Assembly: GCA_964640545.1 (NCBI GenBank) | Contig: CAZXHL010000006.1 | Location: 1-54,922 of the forward strand | Length of the DNA stretch: 54,922 bases | From: an uncultured Bacteriovorax sp. | GTDB taxonomy: Bacteria; Bdellovibrionota; UBA2428 | Direction of reading: 5' to 3' | In this document: positions 10,246 through 51,447 of the stretch, piece after piece | How the letters are laid out: every line of letters starts with the position of its first letter | Position numbering within the stretch: the first letter of the stretch is position 1 | Notes under the pieces: generated by a model | Databases searched by the model: none | Told to the model about the DNA's origin: nothing | What the model saw: only the letters and a program-made list of their open reading frames with translations | Program-made: the position numbers and the translations under genes

Positions 10246-11759
10246 TTTCTCTCGAACGCGCCCATATATCCCATAGTGAGATAGTTATCCGTAGTATTAC
10301 GCTTGCGGCCCTCGAGAGCGTTGATCGTAGATCGCTGAGGCTTGAAGTAAGAGTCACTTTCACGTTTTTGTTTGTCGCCGATCAAAGCGCGAATACGATC
10401 TAGCTCTGCCGTGAAGCTAGAAGCCTCTGGGTTAGCGATGAGCTCCAGCGCTTCCTCGTATCTCTCCGTACGGGCGATCGCCTTTTCGTTATCTTCTTTG
10501 AGCTTCTCAATCTTTTCTTCGTAGCGAGTGATTGCAGTCTGACGACGCTCAATCTCCCTATCTTCACCACGCTCTTCCGCACGCTCCAAACGCTCTCTCT
10601 CGTATTCAAGGCGCTGCTCCTGAACCTTTAGGCTTCCATGAATTCGAAGCTGCTGCGTGCGCGCATCAGAAAGTTTCTCATAAACGCGGGAACGACATTG
10701 AGCTACTAGCTTTTCCGCATGTCCTACTGGCGTATTCGTTCCAGCAAAGAGCGTGTTGTACATGCTTGTCGCACTTTCGCAACCAGGGATACTTTGTAGT
10801 TCTTCATTCACATTTTGGAAAGACTCTTGGAGCTCCCATTTGATCTTGTCGAGCTGATATTTGTTGTCGAGCTCAGCGGTCTTCAAGGAGAACTGTGCAT
10901 TTTCAATTTCTTGATCAATGGCGACTCTGTTCTCGTGAGTTTGGTTGAAGACTTCTTCCAATCGACCTTCTTTGGCAAGTTTTGCAACTTCAGTGATACG
11001 AAGCTTATCAAACATTCCTGCGACATTAGTATTCGGTAACAACTTAGGGACCCAAGTACGCCTGATGTAATCGGCACAGTCGGGGTCTCCCTTGCTGGAT
11101 GCTGCAAACATCGTAGCAAGCAAGGCCGCCATTCTATGTCCGACATCGTATTGTCCACTATAGACACGAAGAGCTCCTGCTCCTGACGTAAATTTAACGG
11201 CGTGTTGGTAAACCTCAGACCCACCAGCCATGGCTCTTACTTCATCTTCGGAAACTCCGGGAGCTGAACCATTTAACCAAGGAGCCAAAGTGTCAGCGTC
11301 AGCTTCTACCGAAGTCGCATAGTCCACAATCCATTGCTGGTATCCGCCAGCAAGAGGAATCGCTCGCCAAGTAGGAACCATATAGCTTCCAGAAAAGGTT
11401 CCGTACTGAGGATTTTCAATCCGAGACAGAACATCTTGGGCAGAAAACCCATTTCCCATATCAATCCGAAGCAAACTTGCGGAGCCACAGCCCGCTCTTG
11501 CCTCGGAATAAGTTGGAGTGAGTCCACGAGCATCAGCATGACCACCGTTGGCTAAGGCCCCGATACGTTCGTCTTTGCGAACTTCACCGCGCCCACTTGG
11601 CCCACCATCACCATCTGGTCCTGACGGCACCCTTTCGGATGCCGGGCTTCGCCCTGCATCCACATCACTTGATGCCGTAAACAACTTCGAAGAACAAGCG
11701 CTTATACCAAAAGCCATGAGAGAAAAAGAAAGGAGTTTCATAGGAGATACCCGTATCAT
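10242..11759 (-). CDS. Hypothetical lipoprotein with long C-terminal coiled coil
   Basis: Lipobox ISAC, RSPAS motif, E/R/K-rich heptad-like C-terminus; TAAACT 6 nt before the ATG. Confidence 0.7.
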   Translation of the reverse strand: MIRVSPMKLLSFSLMAFGISACSSKLFTASSDVDAGRSPASERVPSGPDGDGGPSGRGEVRKDERIGALANGGHADARGLTPTYSEARAGCGSASLLRIDMGNGFSAQDVLSRIENPQYGTFSGSYMVPTWRAIPLAGGYQQWIVDYATSVEADADTLAPWLNGSAPGVSEDEVRAMAGGSEVYQHAVKFTSGAGALRVYSGQYDVGHRMAALLATMFAASSKGDPDCADYIRRTWVPKLLPNTNVAGMFDKLRITEVAKLAKEGRLEEVFNQTHENRVAIDQEIENAQFSLKTAELDNKYQLDKIKWELQESFQNVNEELQSIPGCESATSMYNTLFAGTNTPVGHAEKLVAQCRSRVYEKLSDARTQQLRIHGSLKVQEQRLEYERERLERAEERGEDREIERRQTAITRYEEKIEKLKEDNEKAIARTERYEEALELIANPEASSFTAELDRIRALIGDKQKRESDSYFKPQRSTINALEGRKRNTTDNYLTMGYMGAFERN

Positions 11760-14919: not shown

Positions 14920-15600
14920 ATGCAACACAATCCAGCGCGCTGCCCCGTTTGTAGAGAAGGACTCGGTGGCTTTTTTTGTGTCCTCGACCCTGAACACATC
15001 AACGACATTGATCGCAGTAAAACCACAAAATCCTTCCGCACCGGCGAAGTGGTTTTTGAAAGAGGCGATTCTCCTCAGGGTTTGTTCTGCATTGTAGATG
15101 GCCTCATCAAAGTTGAAACGGAACAAGAAGAGGGGAAGTCACACATTCTACGACTAGCCGGACCAGGCGAGAGCATTGGTTACCGCGCACTTTTTGGACG
15201 AAGGCGATATGAGGCGAGAGCCGTTGCCCACGAAGACTCCAAAGTCCACTTCATTCCACGCTCCACAATTGACGATCTGATGATCAAACAACCACAGCTT
15301 TCCCTAAAATTTTTAGAGCTGCTATCCGAAGACATCAAACAAGCTGAAGAGAGACTTTGCGCGGCAACTGACAAAGATAGTGCTTCGAGAATTGCGGAAA
15401 CGATTCTTTTTTTAGACTCGAACTACACTCCCGATAAACCATGGACCCGCAAAGACATCGCAGACTGGGCGGGAACAACTCCTGAGACGGTCATGAGACA
15501 GCTGACTCAGCTGGAAAACCAAGGAATGATCGCAAGTGAAGGCCGGAGAATTTTGATTACTGATCCATCATCCTTGAATCAAGTCGCCCAAACGCTCTAA
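14920..15600 (+). CDS. Crp/Fnr family transcriptional regulator with N-terminal cysteines
   Basis: CPVC...C N-terminus, cNMP-binding fold (GE..F..GD, GESIG), HTH TRKDIADWAGTTPETVMRQL. Confidence 0.9.
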   Translation: MQHNPARCPVCREGLGGFFCVLDPEHINDIDRSKTTKSFRTGEVVFERGDSPQGLFCIVDGLIKVETEQEEGKSHILRLAGPGESIGYRALFGRRRYEARAVAHEDSKVHFIPRSTIDDLMIKQPQLSLKFLELLSEDIKQAEERLCAATDKDSASRIAETILFLDSNYTPDKPWTRKDIADWAGTTPETVMRQLTQLENQGMIASEGRRILITDPSSLNQVAQTL

Positions 15601-15606
15601 ACTGGA

Positions 15607-15827
15607 ACTGTGCGCGCTTAAGTGTTGTAGGGGCGTATCTGGTCTCAGAGGCCTTTCTAAGTCATTTTAAATATTTAGGTTCAGTCGAAGGACTATGGGG
15701 TGAATTGCTGGCGCCAGCCAGCAAGAGGGGAGTGGCACTCCCCTTGTCCTGAGTAATGAATCTAAATATTTAAAATGACTTAGAAAAGCCACTAAACACG
15801 ATCTTGCAACACTTAAGCGCGCACAGT
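15607..15827 (+). repeat. Complete ~221 bp palindromic intergenic element (copy 2)
   Basis: Arms ACTGTGCGCGCTTAAGTGTTG...TTTCTAAGTCATTTTAAATATTTAG / CTAAATATTTAAAATGACTTAGAAA...CAACACTTAAGCGCGCACAGT around core AGGAC-TATGGGGTGAA-hairpin-hairpin-GTCCT. Confidence 0.92.
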
Positions 15828-15839
15828 CTAAACTTGAGC

Positions 15840-17147
15840 CTAAGTTCCCTTAGTCCCACTAGGCGCTTTAGAGAACTTGATCAGCTTTAACAAGCCGCGA
15901 GCCTCCAAAACCATAGAATCATTTTGAATCTTCTCTTGGAATTTAGAAACTTTTTTCTTTTCAGCTTCAGGCTCTTTGGCATTGTCCAAGTGTCCTTCGA
16001 GGTCGGCTTCACTTCGGGAATAAAGAGAGGCTTTGAGCTTTTTTGCTGTCTCTTCATCGAGAGGAAGAAGTGGGTAGTCAGGCTCAATGCCCTTAGCCTG
16101 AATCGATCGCCCTTTGGGCGTGAAGTATTGCGCAACAGTCACCTTCAAACCTGATCCGTCTCCGAGAGGTAAAACGGTTTGCACCGACCCCTTACCAAAG
16201 CTTTTTTGTCCCGCAATGATCGCTCGTCCCATATCTTGCAATGCACCCGCAACGATTTCACTCGCGGAAGCACTACCACCATCAATCAACACAACTAGCG
16301 GCAGGTCTGTGACCTTGTTACCCTCTTGAGCGAATAGTTTTTCTTGCGCCTTCGTGGAGCGTCCTTTGGTATAGACTACCAAGCCCTTATCATTAAAAAG
16401 GTTTACGACTTGAACGGCTTGCAAGAGGAGCCCTCCAGGATTCCCTCGAAGGTCGAGAATGATGCCTTTGATGTTTGAATTTGTCTTATGTTTTCTAATC
16501 AATTCAGCAAGGTCTTGCCCTGTGCTTTCGGAGAACGATGCGATTCTTGTGTAAAGAGTGTCCTCCTTGATCACAACTCCACGAACAGACCTCATTTTAA
16601 TGATTTCACGAGTAACATCTAACTCTATCGTTTTGCTATCACGCCCAATAGTGACTTTAATTTTCGAACCAGGGTCACCCCTCATCAATGAAACTGCTTC
16701 AGGCAAAGACATTTTCTTCGTGGAATGCTTTCCAATTTTTAAAATTACATCTCCAGCCAGAATCCCAGCCTTGTCGGCAGGAGTTCCCTCGATGGGAGAA
16801 ACAACTGTGATGTAATTTTCATCAATGCTGACTTCAACCCCTAGCCCACCGAACTTTCCAGAAGTTTCATCTTGCATTTCGCTGAAGATTTTCTTTTCTA
16901 GATATGCCGAATGCGGATCAAGATCTCGAAGCATTCCCTTGATGGCGCCTTCAATGATTTCTTCTTGAGAAACGTCGTGCACATAGTTTTCTTCGAGGTA
17001 TTGAAGAATCTTCGCAAATTTTTCTAGCGATGGGTAATCAACCTTTGCGGAAGCCTGAAAAGAGAAAGCCCCCAGCACTCCTCCGCACACAACTGATAGC
17101 AAGAGCTTCTTGGGGGATCGTAAGGAGTGAAACTTGGATTGGTTCAT
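15840..17147 (-). CDS. ctpA: S41A carboxy-terminal processing protease
   Basis: LDPHSAY, PDZ GGLGVEV, DLRGNPGGLL, SASASEIVAG, GKGSVQ motifs. Confidence 0.92.
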   Translation of the reverse strand: MNQSKFHSLRSPKKLLLSVVCGGVLGAFSFQASAKVDYPSLEKFAKILQYLEENYVHDVSQEEIIEGAIKGMLRDLDPHSAYLEKKIFSEMQDETSGKFGGLGVEVSIDENYITVVSPIEGTPADKAGILAGDVILKIGKHSTKKMSLPEAVSLMRGDPGSKIKVTIGRDSKTIELDVTREIIKMRSVRGVVIKEDTLYTRIASFSESTGQDLAELIRKHKTNSNIKGIILDLRGNPGGLLLQAVQVVNLFNDKGLVVYTKGRSTKAQEKLFAQEGNKVTDLPLVVLIDGGSASASEIVAGALQDMGRAIIAGQKSFGKGSVQTVLPLGDGSGLKVTVAQYFTPKGRSIQAKGIEPDYPLLPLDEETAKKLKASLYSRSEADLEGHLDNAKEPEAEKKKVSKFQEKIQNDSMVLEARGLLKLIKFSKAPSGTKGT

Positions 17148-29149: not shown

Positions 29150-29369
29150 GTTGTACGCCAGAAGTGCTTGGTAGAGCGCGCGAGTATCATTTCTAAATCA
29201 GTTGAAATATTTGTGTTCATTACTCAGGACGAGGGGGAGCGCAGCCCCCCTCTGGCAAGTTTGCACTTGCCATTCACCCCCATAGTCCTTCGACTGAACC
29301 CAGATATTTCAACTGATTTAGAAACGCTCCATCTTTTTTGCGCTCTACCAAACACTTCTGGCGCACAGT
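29150..29369 (-). repeat. Complete ~220 bp palindromic intergenic element (copy 3, core on minus strand)
   Basis: Arms CGCCAGAAGTGCTTGGTAGAGCGC...TTTCTAAATCAGTTGAAATAT / ATATTTCAACTGATTTAGAAA...GCGCTCTACCAAACACTTCTGGCGCACAGT; core 29226-29289. Confidence 0.92.
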
Positions 29370-46367: not shown

Positions 46368-46754
46368 ATGTCTGAAATTCGCCCTGAACTTTTCTACACC
46401 AAAGAACACGAATGGATTAAAAAAACTAACAATCCAAAAGTATTTCAAATGGGAATCACTGACTTTGCGCAATCCGCTCTTGGCGATGTGACTTATCTAG
46501 AACTTCCTGAATTGGATTCCACAATTTCTCAAAATGATGTTGTCGGAAGTATTGAGTCCGTAAAATCAGTTTCAGAACTCTTTGCACCTCTAAGCGGAAA
46601 AGTCACAGCAAGGAATGAGTCGCTTTTGGATGACCCTTCTCCCCTGAACTCTTCCCCCTATGATGATGCTTGGCTACTCGAGATCGAAATCACGAATGAA
46701 AGTGAACTCAGTCAACTGCTAGGCCCCGAAGCTTACGCCTCTGTAGCTCAATAG
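46368..46754 (+). CDS. gcvH: Glycine cleavage system H protein
   Basis: TKEHEW, GITDFAQ.ALGD, lipoyl ESVK. Confidence 0.96.
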   Translation: MSEIRPELFYTKEHEWIKKTNNPKVFQMGITDFAQSALGDVTYLELPELDSTISQNDVVGSIESVKSVSELFAPLSGKVTARNESLLDDPSPLNSSPYDDAWLLEIEITNESELSQLLGPEAYASVAQ

Positions 46755-46799
46755 GTTTGGCTCAATAGTGTTAGCTCAATAGTTTTGACTTAATAATTT
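46744..46799. repeat. 14-bp tandem repeat, four copies, overlapping the gcvH stop
   Basis: TAGCTCAATAGGTT / TGGCTCAATAGTGT / TAGCTCAATAGTTT / TGACTTAATAATTT. Confidence 0.75.
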
Positions 46800-51230: not shown

Positions 51231-51447
51231 ACTGTGCGCGGTAAAAAGTGGAAAGCCCTAAAAGCTCAGGCTCTCAATCATTCTAAATATTTGGATTTGT
51301 TACTCAGGACAGGGGGAGCGCAGCCCCCCTCTGGCAAGTTGGCACTTGCCATTCACCCCCATAGTCCTAAGCACAAACCAACTATTTAGAATGATTGAGA
51401 ACCCGAACTACGGCTTTTATGGCTTTCCACTTTTTACCGCGCACAGT
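51231..51447 (-). repeat. Complete ~217 bp palindromic intergenic element (copy 4, core on minus strand)
   Basis: Arms ACTGTGCGCGGTAAAAAGTGGAAAGCC...CTCAATCATTCTAAATA / TATTTAGAATGATTGAG...GGCTTTCCACTTTTTACCGCGCACAGT; core 51306-51368. Confidence 0.92.

Follow-up and report, generated by a model that had tools for sequence, protein, structure and literature searches.

Introduction

[quoted passage not shown] A review (PMC10969869) covers two hairpin-forming MITEs that are co-transcribed with neighboring genes, the Correia elements of Neisseria and the ERIC elements of enterobacteria. RNase III cleaves the transcripts of Correia elements within reach of their ends, at the terminal repeats; ERIC elements located at the 3' ends of genes alter mRNA levels (PMC10969869). 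BOX modules, with possible riboswitch-like motifs, are also mentioned there. Here we analyze a family of palindromic repeats first seen in a 54,922-nt stretch of DNA from an uncultured Bacteriovorax sp. This stretch, called the window, is the entire contig C6 of a metagenome-assembled genome (MAG) from an aquifer, G000 (2.9 Mb, 219 contigs, 46% G+C). We consider it very probable that the palindromic repeats are MITEs and that they are mobilized in trans by IS1-like DDE transposases, with which they have terminal repeats in common.

Results

Termini common to the elements and to resident insertion sequences

An earlier note on this DNA had recorded four copies of the element, and re-reading the sequence together with a repeat search of the window places all four where it did. 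The tips are ACTGTGCGC...GCGCACAGT, with a degenerate left tip, GTTGTACGC, in copy 3. The inverted arms of ~70 bp appear in the repeat search as two-part pairs inside each complete copy, and the center of copies 1 and 2 lies on the + strand, that of copies 3 and 4 on the - strand, as had been described.

The same note saw no cognate enzyme nearby. This is right for the window only, where C6 has no match to relatives of the element's transposase, Y1/HUH proteins, tyrosine integrases or reverse transcriptases; elsewhere in the genome, a 1,200-bp IS at C2:29459-30658 shares the termini. Its ends are ACTGTGCGCCGG...CCGGCGCACAGT, with tips as in the MITEs, and it has a single open reading frame (ORF) of 360 amino acids. 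It is the long version, with the same termini around an ORF, for which the note had advised looking, and its product is a predicted DDE-fold protein.

Three IS variants occur in G000, two of which (IS2 and IS3) are present only as contig ends:

IS2, A-type terminal repeat: left ends at C56, C161, C167 and C174; right ends at C75, C113, C154 and C94/C99
IS3, B-type terminal repeat: left ends at the end of C2 and at C133, C200 and C40; right ends at C16, C78 and C138

Contig C75 encodes the final 135 amino acids of a transposase that are 61% identical to those of the C2 protein, together with an A-type terminus, and an IS3-matching transposase C-terminus is found on a metagenome locus. The MITEs fall into subfamilies A, B and C, each of which shares a terminal repeat of ~22 nt with one resident IS variant. 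It is these common terminal repeats that identify the elements as MITEs. ISs with the same terminal repeats are thus represented by the complete one on C2, by the IS2 and IS3 ends, and by ISs in related genomes. The latter are 1.18-1.31 kb long, with ACTGTGCG-type tips in G001, G011, G012, G007, G005 and G006, and with tips ATTGTGCGC in G004 and G214.

The parent transposase

The NCBIfam IS1 model NF033558 aligns to residues 6-134 of the transposase, covering a zinc-binding motif and a helix-turn-helix (HTH), with E 2.7e-9. An AlphaFold model built on 27 homologues has a pLDDT of 80, and its top Foldseek matches are the ISCth4 transposase, retroviral integrases and Mos1, all of the DDE/RNase-H fold. 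Among the 27 homologues the cysteines C9, C36 and C39 are invariant, the cysteine C6 is present in at least 90%, and several D/E residues are invariant. Model alignment, conserved residues and fold agree on an IS1-type layout, in which an N-terminal zinc-binding motif and HTH precede a DDE-type fold.

The nearest Atlas clusters carry the name IS1 family transposase, their commonest phyla being Bdellovibrionota and Spirochaetota. A large protein collection contains at least 285 homologues, all of them lacking a precomputed Pfam domain. Of 301 genomes from the phylum, 91 have homologues, and the distant ones also match the IS1 model with scores under its cut-off. When PDB sequences were searched by profile, zinc-finger and HTH noise was all that came back. 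On the predicted structure, the parent transposase is a distant relative of IS1 that comprises an N-terminal zinc ribbon, an HTH and a DDE/RNase-H-fold domain.

A different kind of enzyme might be responsible. The elements could be REPIN-like, i.e. pairs of REP-type palindromes moved via single-stranded DNA hairpins by a Y1/HUH transposase (RAYT or IS200-type). Three Y1_Tnp genes in G000 score above the Pfam cut-off, with open frames of 226-230 amino acids:

C95:4536-4823, Y1_Tnp (HUH) gene
C120:6385-6732, Y1_Tnp (HUH) gene
C81:10940-11191, Y1_Tnp (HUH) gene

The elements are long hairpins, mostly without clean target duplications, and there is inverted symmetry in their flanks at positions -4 to -1, all of which would suit such a mechanism. 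However, none of the three Y1_Tnp genes has paired termini within 2.5 kb, with just a solo fragment near the one on C81, and in G000 and six relatives these termini enclose an IS that encodes a DDE-fold transposase. Moreover, the MITEs of G001 have just 24-nt terminal repeats and no hairpin body. We regard the REPIN-like explanation as highly improbable.

Copy number and subfamilies in the genome

The exact 9-mer tip occurs 105 times in G000, compared with ~22 occurrences expected from genome size. This excess and the z-scores for folding of the two strands of copy 2 (-16.7 and -16.1) go beyond what chance would give. A longer tip pattern, ACTGTGCGCSNNNAANNGT, has 97 matches, and the reversed pattern used as a control has none. 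Pairing of tips yields 27 short elements and one of 1,200 bp, and with copy 3, whose left tip is degenerate, the short elements number 28. Further copies in the genome, whose absence along with that of empty orthologous sites the earlier note would have taken as evidence against mobility, are plentiful. A covariance model of the center (R1) finds 27 matches in G000, three of them partial and at contig ends. Fifty-three of the 438 contig ends of G000, the start of the window among them, break inside a copy of the family, and so it is this IS/MITE family that breaks the assembly and is a main cause of its fragmentation. The true copy number in G000 is probably about 50. Extrapolation of one copy per 14 kb to the genome, as had been proposed, is thus too high, since 28 complete copies and 53 broken ends in 2.9 Mb point to ~50 copies rather than ~200.

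The subfamilies were assigned by their outer arms:

Subfamily A: ACTGTGCGCGCTTAAGTGTTG, 219-221 bp
Subfamily B: ACTGTGCGCGGTAAAAAGTGG, 217 bp, several sub-lineages
Subfamily C: ACTGTGCGCCGGGAA.GTTGG, 225 bp

Overall, the elements are 217-232 bp in length, within the 50-800 bp of MITEs, and carry no transposase gene; the only in-frame reading is an ATG frame of 2 or 20 codons that differs between subfamilies (read by eye). In the 28 paired elements, 18-25 of 25 end positions are complementary, exceeding the 10-15 bp expected of a MITE. Many copies in G000 are near-identical to each other. Others are mosaics of modules: B2 has hairpin 2 of the A type with terminal repeats of the B type, and copy 3 has hairpins of the B1 type with inner arms of the A type.

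Related forms are also present in G000. Three elements of 231-232 bp (C21:22436-22666, C34:19927-20157 and C107:5683-5914; L103-L105) have ACTGTGCGC tips and long arms and a different center, in which GCAGGAC...GTCCTGC surrounds other hairpins. Shorter derivatives are a 130-bp form at C12:36278-36407 and a rearranged A copy of 137 bp at C91:1718-1854.

Copies in the window and their fold

The copies in the window are made up as follows:

1-96, + strand: copy 1, partial, subfamily A; 3' part of the center, right arm and right terminus, truncated by the contig start
15607-15827: copy 2, complete subfamily-A MITE, 221 bp, center in + sense
15597-15606, + strand: left 10-nt flank of copy 2, CTAAACTGGA, including the TAA stop of ORF 14920-15600
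15607-15630, + strand: left terminal inverted repeat of copy 2, ACTGTGCGCGCTTAAGTGTTG..., partner at 15804-15827
15679-15761, + strand: conserved center of copy 2, 83 nt, three-way junction, 107.7 bits with model R1
15689-15693: P1 of copy 2, paired with 15746-15750
15694-15705: J1/2 joiner of copy 2, TATGGGGTGAAT
15705-15724: hairpin 1 of copy 2, with AGAG at 15724-15727 and hairpin 2 at 15727-15743
15828-15837: right flank of copy 2, CTAAACTTGA, a 9/10 direct match to the left flank
29150-29369, - strand: copy 3, 220 bp, a lineage of its own ('D'), left genomic end degenerate, between convergent ORFs
29215-29299, - sense: center of copy 3, 96 bits with model R1
51231-51447, - strand: copy 4, subfamily-B MITE, 217 bp, between convergent ORFs
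51295-51378, - sense: center of copy 4, 102.2 bits with model R1

Copy 2 sits between the convergent ORFs 14920-15600 (+) and 15840-17147 (-), and its terminal repeat is alike to the ends of the IS2-type IS in ~21 of 22 nt, counted by eye. Copy 1 is 89.6% identical to element positions 126-221 of copy 2. In the repeat search, 1-100 matches 15732-15831 at 89% and 29232-29289 matches 51311-51368 at 98%. The arm pairs returned by that search are 15607-15643/15791-15827 and 15647-15683/15757-15793 in copy 2, 29152-29179/29340-29367 and 29190-29219/29295-29324 in copy 3, and 51224-51265/51413-51454 and 51263-51297/51375-51409 in copy 4. The predicted fold of copy 2 is very stable on both strands, with -128.8 kcal/mol (z -16.7) on the + strand and -118.6 kcal/mol (z -16.1) on the - strand. 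In copy 2, neither a promoter-like nor a terminator-like site was found.

Elsewhere in the window, a 25-nt look-alike of hairpin 1 at 11333-11357 lies within an ORF of 505 amino acids and was dismissed as chance. At 46744-46799, three overlapping 28-nt units with 14-nt spacing (TAGCTCAATAGGTT-like) form a short tandem array of a 14-nt motif.

Target site and gene context

The 10 nt outside the tips follow the consensus T-W-A-A-R-Y-T-T-W-M (TWAARYTTWM): of the 56 flanks, 47 have A at position -7, 43 have T at -3 and 42 have T at -4. Because near-identical copies have different flanks, this sequence belongs to the target and not to the element. Position -1 is an exception. By a tally made by eye, A predominates at it in subfamily A and C in B1, and 22 of 28 elements show agreement between their two ends at this position, for which reason we take the true tip to be (A/C)ACTGTGCGC.

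In two ISs rebuilt across contig ends the flanks match directly, in 10 of 10 positions for C56/C75 and, with an offset of 1, in 8 of 8 for C35/C154. A MITE in the genome G010 is flanked on either side by TAATAATA, again 8 of 8 with an offset of 1. These sequences fit a target duplication of 8 bp. The earlier observation that no consistent target-site duplication is visible stands for the copies in the window and in G000. Over the genome the flanks, compared at length 8 and offset 1, match at a mean of 4.3 of 8 positions, compared with 3.7 for mismatched pairs (permutation p 0.004), and when offsets of 0-5 on both sides and lengths of 3-11 were tested the best excess over mismatched pairs was 0.09. 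The two flanks of one copy resemble separate draws from the target consensus, which could reflect replicative or recombinational histories. Inverted symmetry of the flanks, which would extend the inverted repeat outward, reaches significance at positions -4 to -1 alone, with 2.75 matches compared with 2.02, a value reached in none of 5,000 shuffles.

Swapping of flanks, in which the duplication partners would be found at other copies, was also considered and rejected: perfect cross-pairs are few and are mostly the palindrome TTAAGCTTAA. At C45:8053-8269 the 12 nt on each side are perfect inverted repeats (GCCTGAATTTAA / TTAAATTCAGGC), either because the target was palindromic or because the copy lies inside another hairpin.

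The elements lie preferentially between convergent genes. With neighboring genes called by a longest-ORF heuristic, on which the count rests, 27 elements have two neighbors, of which 17 are between convergent, 4 between divergent and 6 between tandem genes. Convergent pairs thus account for 63% at elements compared with 385 of 2,253 (17.1%) in G000 as a whole (binomial p 1.3e-7). Each of the three complete window copies occupies a convergent spacer. Stop codons are often just 5-7 nt away from the tip, and the AA of the flank consensus is often that of the TAA stop codon of a convergent gene. The target motif is densest in convergent spacers, at 0.30 per kb compared with 0.02 in coding sequence, a comparison that is partly circular in that elements lie next to 7 of these hits. 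The bias probably stems both from target preference and from selection against harmful insertions.

Distribution and empty sites

The element has a restricted distribution. BLAST with copy 2 finds it in 2 of 41 genomes, G000 and G010; the covariance model of the center finds matches in 3 of 150, namely G000, G010 and a single diverged copy in G014; and a pattern scan with one genome per species adds one more MAG. The earlier note had proposed a lineage-specific, non-autonomous element mobilized in trans. This restricted distribution, the IS with the same termini and a site in G001 from which copy 4 is missing all support that proposal. G001 belongs to the same genus as G000, and at its site orthologous to that of copy 4 the flanking genes are 68 bp apart compared with 308 bp in the window; identity between the two genomes there is ~70%, at which the exact junction is unreadable.

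G001 has MITEs of its own. It contains 34 tips of the same type, and the eight MITEs that were read (L137-L144, e.g. C31:41606-41765 and C28:37014-37161) are 149-182 bp long. They have a terminal repeat of ~24 nt in common and heterogeneous interiors, with no long arms or common center. Several, such as L140 and L142, are flanked by inverted and not by direct repeats.

G010 is of a different genus. Its copy at C62:8478-8698 (L002) is 97% identical to copy 2, and its flanks have no match to G000. On contig C95 of G010 (L018) there is an IS3-type right end, of which 77 nt show no difference by eye from the metagenome locus L067, and three IS3 right ends in G000, of 46-51 nt each, read the same as both by eye. 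The sequences of the G010 copies suggest recent horizontal spread or a shared mobilome, with mis-binning a further possibility.

A scan of metagenomes gave 49 stretches containing 30 complete elements, and the joined flanks of 24 of these match G000, with identities of 98-100% on each side in 21 cases. Identity at that level on both flanks indicates the same population with the same insertions. In one metagenome locus (L056 1849-2068), the element found at C12:3241 has a left flank like that in G000, and part of its right flank matches C208 rather than C12, which may result from rearrangement or from chimeric assembly of the repeat region. A hot springs metagenome, run X20, contains a subfamily-A copy with 18 differences from window 15606-15826 and other flanks, so relatives of the element are found outside the aquifer runs. 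A scan of viral contigs with the center pattern gave 14 stretches that scored only 14.4-14.9 bits with model R1 (E 0.19-0.28) and were treated as chance; the one that was read is a gene end plus a terminator, and others lie in phage tRNA arrays.

The MITE family was not found described in Rfam or in literature searches, whose scope did not extend to ISfinder or the supplements of PMC11602168, which may list it. A literature search with the 9-mer tips returned primers only, and one for 'MITE' with 'Bdellovibrio' returned nothing relevant.

Several observations weigh against movement of the MITEs by IS1-like transposases. The alignment to NF033558 scores 37.2 bits, below the cut-off of 100 that would place the protein in the IS1 family by that model, and a Pfam search of the transposase (E up to 1) gave no domain apart from weak HTH families, with no PF03400. 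The interiors of IS2 and IS3 are absent from the assembly, so that their transposases are known from fragments only. No polymorphic filled and empty site was found in the contigs of four DNA runs or in the 24 metagenome loci with G000 flanks. The two perfect pairs of IS flanks were selected among 4,560 end pairs, and with length 8 and offset 1 a full match of 8 is absent from the 28 elements compared in G000 (27 MITEs plus the IS), of which 4 reach 7 of 8. The complete IS on C2 has a flank match of just 4 of 8, and the identical copies C8:25758 and C10:36308 carry imperfect flank repeats. To these may be added the dependence of the convergent-gene count on heuristic gene calls.

A conserved center with a three-way junction

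Alignment of 21 distinct centers gives a three-way junction. An outer 5-bp helix and a small internal loop lead to P1 (AGGAC/GTCCT). This is followed by a joiner of 12-13 nt, TATGGGG(G)TGAAT, by hairpin 1, which has an 8-bp stem and a GCCA-type loop, and by AGAG. Hairpin 2 has a 7-bp stem, and 1-3 nt lead back from it to P1. The fold covaries: standard pairs make up 96.8% of cells, and both partners have changed in 9 of the 25 pairs, to be read with the caution that the sequences are few and related (effective number in the model 1.35). In a control in which the partner was slid by 1-3 columns, 39-54% were paired and 0-4 pairs were changed on both sides. Given this covarying structure, the other option in the earlier note, a multicopy structured RNA or ssDNA, may still apply to the center.

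Conservation is very uneven along the element. Mean pairwise identities among six lineages are:

Tips (1-10), left / right end: 0.95 / 0.85
Terminal repeat 11-24: 0.56
Mid-arms: 0.32-0.42
Inner arms: 0.61-0.74
P1 and J1/2: 0.94
Hairpin 1: 0.72 (minimum pairwise 0.50)
J2/3: 1.00 (4-nt joiner, no substitution)
Hairpin 2: 0.79

The diverged copy in G014 (C1:20067-20149; L110:1501-1583) scores 42.9 bits and lies in a palindrome without ACTGTGCGC tips. Compared by eye with the G000 consensus, without realignment, all three of its helices differ, and ...GGGAGTGAAT and AGAG are retained.

Two explanations of the center have to be weighed. In the first, the 83-nt center is the functional unit, a new structured RNA under selection for which the MITE arms are a vehicle, the terminal repeats having been swapped to follow whichever transposase is active. 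The near-invariant joiners set against hairpins at 72% and 79% and mid-arms at 32-42% would fit such selection, as would the paired changes in the helices and their loss in the slid control. The G014 copy keeps the joiner motif and AGAG with changed helices and no tips. The center has no significant similarity to IS ends, since in 60 comparisons of IS end, MITE and strand a single local alignment exceeded z 3.5 (z 3.7) and was antisense; homology of the center to IS ends was rejected as unsupported on this result. Since the G001 MITEs share ~24-nt repeats only, the long arms and the center are probably dispensable for recognition by the transposase, and conservation of the center would then require another reason. 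Finally, the center-sense strand has the more stable fold in 18 of 22 elements.

Against this, the low effective number of sequences limits the covariation, and whole hairpins have apparently been shuffled between lineages. In quasi-palindromes, template switching can give rise to 'compensatory' changes that involve no selection. Within subfamily A the bias of stability toward one strand is mixed in sign, copy 2 lacks a promoter-like or terminator-like site, and the motif is confined to 3 of 150 genomes. We therefore think it unlikely, on balance, that the center is a selected RNA of this kind. Rfam 15, with which the earlier note had advised comparison, matches no described family: at the gathering threshold there are no hits in the whole window, and searches with ten element sequences (E up to 10 or 5) gave sub-threshold matches only, none of them close to its gathering score and most to plant and animal microRNA models, with Tymo_tRNA-like and STnc290 among the rest, which we regard as noise. 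The full form of the proposal, that the center is an undescribed structured RNA with invariant UAUGGGG(G)UGAAU and AGAG joiners that changes its terminal repeats to exploit three IS1-like transposases and acts on transcripts, is more doubtful still. If it were true, the center might be kept for transcript processing, for 3'-end protection or insulation, or for protein binding after convergent read-through.

In the second explanation, the center is a neutral relic: a single ancestral MITE would have spread recently, recombination with IS ends would have replaced the outer arms, and the center would not have diverged as yet. The mosaic modules of B2 and copy 3, the many near-identical copies and the confinement of the element to few related genomes are consistent with this. 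However, pairwise identity in hairpin 1 falls as low as 0.50 while J2/3 is unchanged and P1 with J1/2 remains at 94%. Diverged stems with constant joiners are unlike the pattern expected of uniform recency. The joiners of the G014 copy are also retained though all its helices have changed. A neutral origin is conceivable and we hold it tentatively, somewhat short of probable.

Discussion

We return to the MITE interpretation, in which gene-less elements would be mobilized in trans by the transposases of resident 1.2-kb ISs with (A/C)ACTGTGCGC tips and ~22-nt repeats. A transposase of the C2 type would be the one that moves them. Three IS variants coexist, and subfamilies A, B and C each have the terminal repeat of one variant while keeping one center. 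Insertion would favor an A/T-rich, roughly palindromic T-WAARYTTW-M beside the tip, often including the TAA stops of convergent genes, and the surviving copies would accumulate between such genes. Read through from the flanking genes, the center and the ~70-bp arms may act as a long RNA hairpin in the manner of Correia and ERIC elements. This last part we advance with reserve, as something that analogy makes possible rather than probable. Within the same interpretation, the center may alternatively be a neutral passenger from a recent ancestor, with outer arms exchanged with IS ends.

The presence in one genome of a MITE family and an IS1-like parent removes the apparent mystery of an element without an enzyme, and the family accounts for the fragmentation of the G000 MAG. 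With one covarying center on the repeats of three IS variants, the family would clearly exemplify a non-autonomous element that tracks more than one transposase. The strong enrichment between convergent genes, and flanks that obey a target consensus yet are rarely true duplications, will be of specialist interest. The clade of the parent transposase has no Pfam family despite its presence in almost a third of the genomes of the phylum.

How the elements compare with known systems can now be set out. They are like bacterial MITEs in being small and ORF-less, with IS-identical terminal repeats, tens of dispersed intergenic copies and a strong predicted hairpin. They are unlike MITEs generally in that their arms of ~70 bp extend well past the ~22-nt repeat of the IS, the duplications are mostly imperfect, and three subfamilies have one center but the repeats of three IS variants.

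IS1 elements prefer A/T-rich targets and have 8-9-bp duplications and GG...TG tips. The parent resembles the IS1 family in the match of the transposase N-terminus to the IS1 model, in the DDE-type fold, and in that two rebuilt ISs have an 8-bp (up to 10-bp) duplication. It differs in having a single 360-amino acid ORF, a sub-cut-off NCBIfam score and the tips ACTGTGCGC.

The modular mosaic, with hairpin modules recombining between copies, is like that of the pneumococcal BOX and the E. coli BIME, for which we know of no IS-type terminal repeats and no cognate DDE transposase. Finally, Correia and ERIC elements provide the model for how the present elements may act between convergent genes, although no sequence relation is seen, the parent is IS1-like, and a covarying three-way junction is found instead of an IHF site.

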